This document shows positions 59,193-59,663 of a stretch of 64,000 bases of DNA, in pieces. The DNA is taken from the NCBI RefSeq assembly GCF_048403405.1, contig NZ_CP183129.1. One strand, written 5' to 3'. The DNA comes from Escherichia coli (lineage in GTDB: Bacteria; Pseudomonadota; Gammaproteobacteria; Enterobacterales; Enterobacteriaceae). Position 1 is the first letter of the stretch. The number at the start of each line of letters is the position of its first letter. The notes beneath the pieces are model-generated. The model was not told the DNA's origin, made no database searches, and saw only the letters and a list, made by a program, of their open reading frames with translations. Made by a program: the position numbers and the translations under genes.

Positions 59193-59663
59193 ATCTCTAG
59201 TAACCTCTCTGATAGCTCATGAAGTTACTTAAAGTTTAGTGGTTGCCCATACAGTATTTCTATTAAGACTAGAATCTATTGAAAGAAATTATAAATCTAT
59301 TGAAAAAATACCGATCCACTGAAAGATTGCAAATGCAAGTGGGATAATTATTTTCTTTATTTTCAATTAGTTACCAGTTTAAAAAATCATTGTTTTATCA
59401 AAGAGTTATATCTTTCATCGTCATTCATCATGTTTTTACATTTCCTTTTATCTTTTATTATTCAATTGGTTGAGTCGGTTTATAATGGCTCATGATGGCT
59501 TAAAATGGCTAATGATAGCTGGCGTATCTTTTAGAGATGGGGTGATTACAGATGAACTAAGCCGAACAGATATAGCAATGGCTAGGCATAGAATTATCTA
59601 TGCTGGTGGAGATGGGTAAACAGGTAATGCCCCGCCATTGCTTTGGAGGGGCGTGAAAAGTGA

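Follow-up and report, generated by a model that had tools for sequence, protein, structure and literature searches.

The closest described systems are the PICIs EcCICFT073 and EcCIMP1, the satellite P4 and the SaPI Stl region. The PICI alpA promoter is helper-inducible and self-activated by AlpA, and in EcCICFT073 and EcCIMP1 a fragment of ~450-500 bp upstream of alpA confers both helper induction and AlpA self-activation (PMC6092414, PMC11773190); whether Gram-negative PICIs have a global repressor was not settled, and the helper inducer was not identified (PMC6092414). EcCIMP1 is a PICI mobilised by the P22-like phage Kapi1 (PMC11773190). In P4, helper activation of PLL runs through Cox boxes, direct repeats in tandem whose period is 10 to 11 bp (PMC3936717). 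The SaPI Stl region was taken as a working analogy: the regulator gene lies on the int side, and operator repeats lie on the excision/replication promoter until a helper protein acts.

The window analysed here, the whole stretch of 64,000 nucleotides of E. coli DNA, holds an island of ~19 kb (about 42756-61806) with all genes on the minus strand, in the order integrase, orf216, alpA, Rha and AntA regulators, Icd-like, DUF927 primase-helicase, SSB, ProQ, PerC, and P22-like ejection and transglycosylase genes. The island is a phage satellite of the PICI/P4-like kind. The gap under study sits between int and alpA, co-oriented with both, in an island with a primase gene and a downstream ori, and the Bro/Rha zone, the DUF927 primase gene and the ori run in the same direction as int and alpA. 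Primase, DUF2824, ejection-protein and PerC modules downstream are common to EcCIMP1. The large genes at 44654-51523 are annotated in relatives as phage DNA ejection/injection proteins and transglycosylase (P22-like), a cargo unusual for a satellite; EcCIMP1, which has a P22-like phage as its helper, carries it too.

In EcCICFT073 and EcCIMP1 the alpA promoter region occupies the same place, from the integration genes to alpA, and is likewise co-oriented. Both PICIs lack orf216 and no cis-elements were defined for either; the upstream region of EcCIMP1 has no alignable similarity to the gap and carries neither the boxes nor the arrays described below. The gap resembles P4 PLL/ori1 in lying directly upstream of the satellite's AlpA-family gene and in its tandem direct repeats of 10 to 11 bp period. 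It differs in that the repeats have the opposite orientation relative to the gene and in the absence of primase iterons, and P4 has no boxes and no orf216. In contrast to the divergent Stl region, the genes around the gap are co-oriented, and Orf216 is unlike Stl or any HTH repressor.

Of 5426 complete E. coli genomes, about 110 carry the int-orf216-gap-alpA block (at least 98.5% identity); among the 40 E. coli records listed, none has an annotated feature in the gap, and no earlier description of its cis-architecture was found in the literature searched. Records of 12 kb and 19 kb that resemble excised circles hold the block as well. The stand-alone records L002 (NZ_CP148430.1, 12,152 bp, annotated plasmid) and L003 (NZ_LT599831.1, 19,226 bp) carry int, orf216, the gap, alpA and a primase gene and look like circular forms, excised from related islands, that were assembled as separate replicons.

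The genes on either side of the gap are:

59664-60314, minus strand: orf216, 216 aa; start overlaps the integrase stop at 60311; candidate box-binding regulator.
58974-59192, minus strand: alpA, 72 aa, Phage_AlpA/HTH_17; the regulated gene.

The gap (59193-59663, 471 bp) is bounded by the ATG of alpA at 59192 and by the stop of the 216-aa ORF orf216 at 59664. Its G+C content is 34.0% (50.6% for the window), a composition equalled by only 0.4% of 471-bp windows, which confirms the original prediction of an AT-rich intergenic stretch between the integrase operon and alpA. In the window as a whole, AT-richness peaks at about 18450-18970 (31-33% G+C). The longest exact repeat in the gap is 12 nt (matched in 18 of 1000 shuffles), and the best period-10 signal was matched in 1 of 1000 dinucleotide shuffles. 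Two repeats reported earlier stand in corrected form. The motif tctattgaaag, given as present twice, occurs once (TCTATTGAAAG, 59275), and the sequence present twice is the 10-mer TCTATTGAAA (59275, 59296), with a third, degenerate copy at 59314. AATGGCT, given as present three times within 59480-59515, occurs there at 59484 and 59504 (a further copy lies at 59577); position 59494 reads GATGGCT, and the motif present three times in the 59484-59504 array is ATGGCT. Together with ATAGCT (59515) the three copies make four units with an exact 10-bp period. The recurrence of atgatagct at 61687 held, ATGATAGCT being found at 59512 and 61687.

Loci from over 12 diverged islands, fetched via homologues of the 216-aa protein, were used for comparison. 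All loci examined keep the order int, orf216, a gap of 323-610 bp and alpA, and this synteny spans Orf216 identities from 83% to 34% in the fetched loci and down to 27% in viral contigs. Between diverged islands the promoter-proximal 140 bp alone can be aligned. This proximal block consists of three or four co-oriented 12-bp boxes of consensus TTTCAATGGATT, with positions T1, T3, G9 and A10 invariant in 32 copies, and in 10 distinct loci the position-weight-matrix matches keep the same offsets to the ATG, about -130, -111, -90 and -75. The boxes are spaced about 16 to 21 bp apart, the last overlapping the -35 hexamer, and are absent from the rest of the window. One island (L019; E. coli E2386, 2673-3122) has lost exactly one 21-bp box unit. 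The features of the proximal block and of the alpA leader are:

59313-59324, minus strand: box 1, TTTCAGTGGATC, position-weight-matrix match at a conserved offset.
59294-59305, minus strand: box 2, TTTCAATAGATT, position-weight-matrix match at a conserved offset.
59273-59284, minus strand: box 3, TTTCAATAGATT, position-weight-matrix match at a conserved offset.
59257-59268, minus strand: box 4, TCTTAATAGAAA, whose last six bases are the predicted weak -35.
59262-59257, minus strand: predicted weak -35, TAGAAA (TGGAAT in relatives).
59233-59238, minus strand: predicted -10, TAAACT (TAnnnT, with T1, A2 and T6 invariant in alignments).
59199-59229, minus strand: alpA leader, with a 9-bp stem that encloses AGCTATCA and pairs the Shine-Dalgarno region.

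We infer that the conserved hexamers are the alpA promoter, of sigma-70 type, and that the boxes are operator or activator sites. In the window and L034 the -35 and -10 stand 18 bp apart; for L025 the spacing is 17 bp. Transcription is predicted to start near 59226-59228, and a start near 59226 would put the box centres near -38, -54, -75 and -95. The original prediction had put the alpA promoter in the gap as probable and regulator binding sites as possible. The comparison supports a promoter there through the invariant TAnnnT and the boxes at fixed offsets, and the reading as alpA promoter plus regulator sites is right in outline; tctattgaaag is the complement of the conserved boxes. Promoter prediction, which had been named as a check, gave no such support: the consensus scan did not call the proposed promoter, whose hexamers are weak, and consensus promoter matches in the gap on either strand were at chance level (4 vs 3.6 in shuffles). 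DnaA, LexA and CRP operator patterns had no match in the gap.

The alpA leader (34 nt) carries AGCTATCA at 59217-59210, in the loop of the stem; the motif is invariant in the leaders of six loci and retained in L016. The leader fold has an energy of -12.2 kcal/mol (z = -2.4). A good stem forms in the window, L004, L005 and L016 and a weaker one in L007, L008, L010, L011 and L022, and the leader hairpin was accordingly dropped as a universal feature, being strong in some loci only.

Orf216 had no match in Pfam, NCBIfam or PADLOC. It belongs to PHROG 30524, its family is small (28 representatives at 50% clustering), and it is an orphan all-alpha protein with a basic C-terminal half (pI 9.6 for that half), in which no DNA-binding fold was detectable. 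What the boxes travel with was read from two kinds of locus. In the E. coli islands L016-18 the same 72-aa AlpA and leader are kept, a 293-aa gene replaces orf216, and the gap is 105 bp with a compact promoter, no boxes and no arrays; the similarity of the window to these islands starts at 59228, the predicted transcription start. The box-pair DNA pattern, used by itself to scan 2.9 million viral contigs, matched at 26 loci. An orf216 homologue lay just upstream in 20 of the 20 genuine promoter matches with enough upstream DNA (HMM E <= 1e-73), in one of them with an IS inserted between homologue and boxes; among the six box-pair matches without orf216 are three repeats in unrelated CDS and, in a giant-virus MAG, a tandem repeat of 21 bp. 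The viral-contig loci have an integrase only about 26% identical and an AlpA of a different, 94-aa subfamily. In L037 (933-2141) an IS transposase lies between orf216 and the arrays.

On these distributions, orf216, arrays, boxes and promoter form one unit that is combined with different alpA genes. Such pairing argues against AlpA as the box binder; the remaining candidates are Orf216 and a factor from either the host or the helper. The original prediction had looked to AlpA and the integrase as binders; they would be part of the answer at best, arm-type cores not being enriched in the gap and the boxes tracking orf216 rather than AlpA. That Orf216 binds the boxes is, in our estimate, a little short of an even chance, and their co-occurrence could reflect linkage and not function, since the two are physically adjacent.

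The strongest competing explanation is that the boxes are bound by a helper-phage activator or a conserved host regulator and that orf216 is merely linked cargo, which we regard as a real though lesser possibility. It is favoured by the box sequence, which barely changes while Orf216 falls to 27% identity, a point against our main reading: near-invariant boxes are just as compatible with a conserved factor of host or helper. The lack of a detectable DNA-binding fold in Orf216 points the same way, as do the box centres near -54, -75 and -95, which lie on one helix face in an activator-typical arrangement before a weak -35. There is room for such a factor, the helper-encoded inducer of PICI alpA being yet to be identified (PMC6092414), and there is precedent in P4, where helper Cox binds repeats upstream of the vis promoter (PMC3936717). 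The explanation has to contend, however, with the boxes having been found only downstream of orf216 homologues (20 of 20 genuine cases), with their absence from EcCIMP1, from P4 and from islands in which the same AlpA is kept but a different gene stands where orf216 would be, and with the lack of any DNA similar to the gap among 50,697 phage records.

The distal half of the gap cannot be aligned between islands, and no array unit occurs in more than two islands. The arrays lie about 150 to 300 bp further upstream than the boxes. The features of the distal half and of the AT-rich spacer are:

59629-59652, minus strand: G+C-rich hairpin GCCCC...GGGGC, 11 nt past the orf216 stop, -16.3 kcal/mol.
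59551-59567, minus strand: pair GTTCGGC / GTTCATC, 10 bp apart, of a recurrent phased family GTTC(A/G).
59482-59520, minus strand: array of four 10-bp units, AGCTATCAT / AGCCATTTT / AGCCATCAT / AGCCATTAT in the direction of alpA (TRF: period 10, 3.6 copies).
59396-59408, plus strand: exact match TATCAAAGAGTTA to the IHF consensus WATCAANNNNTTR, between arrays and boxes in the AT-rich spacer.

The hairpin probably terminates or insulates the int-orf216 transcript; its tail has 3 T in 8 and no U-tract, it was not called by the terminator scan, and hairpins of other sequence stand at the same place in L004, L005 and L011-13. Phasing of the distal half is shared where its sequence is not. Among repeated 5-mers in 10 islands, a distance of 10 occurred 109 times (4.4 expected), 20 occurred 35 times (4.2 expected) and 30 occurred 17 times (4.5 expected), with all other distances at background. 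The GTTC(A/G) family recurs at 10-bp spacing in L004, L007, L010, L021 and L034. Repeat conservation across related islands, which had been proposed as a check, was split: the boxes are kept, and the unit sequences of the distal arrays differ between islands. A distant relative, L034 (3604-3836), has far longer arrays, with seven copies of ACCCAACAGT and five of TGTTCATC plus one inverted copy. IHF-consensus matches number 8 in 11 related gaps (1.0 expected), and in 6 of the 11 a match lies between arrays and boxes. From this pattern the arrays may be platforms for proteins that bind once per helical turn, and IHF may loop them to the promoter.

The recurrence of atgatagct at 61687 led to a conserved motif in the attachment region. 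Every related island has the same series upstream of int: the target-gene end, GCTATCA, a terminator hairpin, tandem (G)TTATCAT-GAGCTATCAT and four arm-type sites GTGTACA. Related islands keep GCTATCA in the alpA leader and in two copies next to the attachment site (attR), and in the window TGATAGC occurs five times on one strand between 59210 and 61767, against ~0.3 expected. The corresponding features of the window are:

61761-61767 and 61688-61694: GCTATCA sites, which flank the terminator hairpin at 61705-61740.
61609-61660 and, at the other island end, 42824-42847: integrase arm-type repeats TATGTACAC.

A short att core was noted around CAGATT (regions 61600-61806 and 42740-42860). The interval between core and arm sites suits a directionality factor, and AlpA is of that protein family, which makes it the natural candidate for GCTATCA. 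Three array units of the window score as GCTATCA-type sites with a matrix from the attR and leader sites (P=0.003), and this 10-bp array resembling GCTATCA, present in the island of the window only, would fit AlpA feedback. As a reading for all islands, arrays as AlpA sites were rejected: the matrix matches the window type only and, weakly, L004. AlpA is not a general array binder, because array units differ between islands whose AlpA proteins are 86-88% identical. Three further candidates were tried and set aside. As integrase arm-type sites, the arrays showed 6 TGTAC(A/C) cores against 5.1 expected, seen in L020 and L021 only. Co-variation of the arrays with att-proximal DNA gave 13.8 shared 7-mers for cognate and 12.7 for non-cognate pairs (permutation P=0.20), a result that also counts against our main reading. 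As P2 Cox boxes, at least six of which at 10 to 11 bp are required, the arrays have the 10-bp spacing, and the gap holds no exact TTAAA(G/C)NC(A/C) and one copy with one mismatch (TTTAAGCCA).

Phased repeats beside AT-rich DNA also recall a replication origin like P4 ori1, the repeats being initiator iterons by an AT-rich unwinding region, an explanation that we judge improbable. In the P4 annotation ori1 (9086-9809) lies directly upstream of vis and contains TGTTCACC iterons as well as 'type 2' repeats of 10 bp, and the gap is AT-rich, with exact 10-bp arrays, an IHF site and recurring GTTCAC-type units. In the window, however, a canonical PICI origin lies elsewhere: directly behind the primase gene (53607-53733), TAACCCGC iterons, 2+4 and inverted, surround an AT-rich spacer. 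PICI origins are described at a position 3' of pri-rep (PMC6092414). A second TAACCCGC cluster (3+3) lies at 43229-43387, and the gap has no TAACCCGC iteron. The 12-kb record L002 combines a gap 99% identical to that of the window with a primase 62% identical and other iterons, TGAACCAAC, in two clusters outside the gap; the arrays thus do not track the replication protein. With primase iterons elsewhere and no co-variation with the gap, we conclude that the gap is not the origin of this island. In the lineage of L034, in which 14 kb hold no other iteron array and the DUF927 gene abuts an SSB-like gene, the gap might have an origin role. The cluster at 53607-53733 is the likely island origin, and the cluster at 43229-43387, near the left end, recalls the two-site ori1/crr of P4.

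The gap has a single ORF, of 49 aa (59470-59619, plus strand), and a small protein or small RNA encoded there is very unlikely. Promoter-like matches exist on the plus strand at 59319-59348 and 59479-506, and a transcript could terminate at the G+C hairpin; set against this, such matches are as frequent in shuffles (4 vs 3.6), and the distal sequence is unalignable between islands. The ORF had no family match and no conservation in related islands, being kept only in near-identical DNA apart from one weak repeat-driven match, and it was dropped as a gene, in agreement with the earlier statement that the gap holds no convincing ORF. The small RNA that had been suggested was rejected. The Rfam covariance-model search of the gap gave sub-threshold matches only (best 21 bits, where the thresholds are 39-41), and the distal half lacks sequence conservation. 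An inert, horizontally acquired AT-rich spacer, perhaps H-NS-silenced, with repeats from slippage or recombination scars, has as little to recommend it: AT-rich DNA is common at module junctions, the distal half evolves fast, L019 lacks one 21-bp unit and L037 carries an IS, but the architecture (box offsets, 10-bp phasing, IHF enrichment, a gap of 323-610 bp) is kept across islands whose proteins are only 26-34% identical, which is hard to reconcile with such a spacer.

The reading that we prefer, and hold to be probable, is that the gap is a composite, helper-responsive control region of alpA, the PICI master activator and excision factor. The int-orf216 unit would be ended by the hairpin, and a sigma-70-type promoter (-10 at 59238-59233, weak -35 at 59262-59257) would start alpA transcription near 59226. 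A regulator bound cooperatively to the boxes on one helix face would set the activity of this promoter; Orf216, expressed with int, is the most likely candidate, as a repressor that would cover the -35 and be relieved by a helper phage. Proteins polymerising with one unit per helical turn would use the phased arrays as platforms. In the island of the window the array protein could be AlpA itself, the units resembling GCTATCA sites, and this would give the known PICI positive feedback. Through bending of the DNA, IHF would carry the array complex to the promoter, and further control, AlpA-dependent and translational, would come from the site and hairpin in the leader.

Repression at the gap by Orf216 may extend to the family as a whole. 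Orf216 proteins would then be a hitherto unrecognised family of master regulators of alpA-type satellites, with four repeats over the -35 silencing the island until a helper protein inactivates the repressor, a proposal that we put forward tentatively and think rather unlikely as it stands. If true, Orf216 as master repressor would supply both the global repressor and the helper-sensing step of Gram-negative PICIs, with the arrays tuning the response. If the arrays bind helper proteins or AlpA, their fast turnover could set which helper phages an island answers. Where no feature had been annotated, there is now a set of defined, testable cis-elements, with one orphan protein family nominated as their cognate regulator, and natural module swaps, in which the same alpA occurs with or without orf216 and boxes, offer ready-made controls.

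In the window the island occupies the 3' end of a gene for a leucine-rich-repeat protein beside dadX (61768-62038, 41412-42758). Nearly all related islands sit at the 3' end of yicC, and a stretch like the 3' end of yicC carried on the island end suggests the use of a secondary site here.
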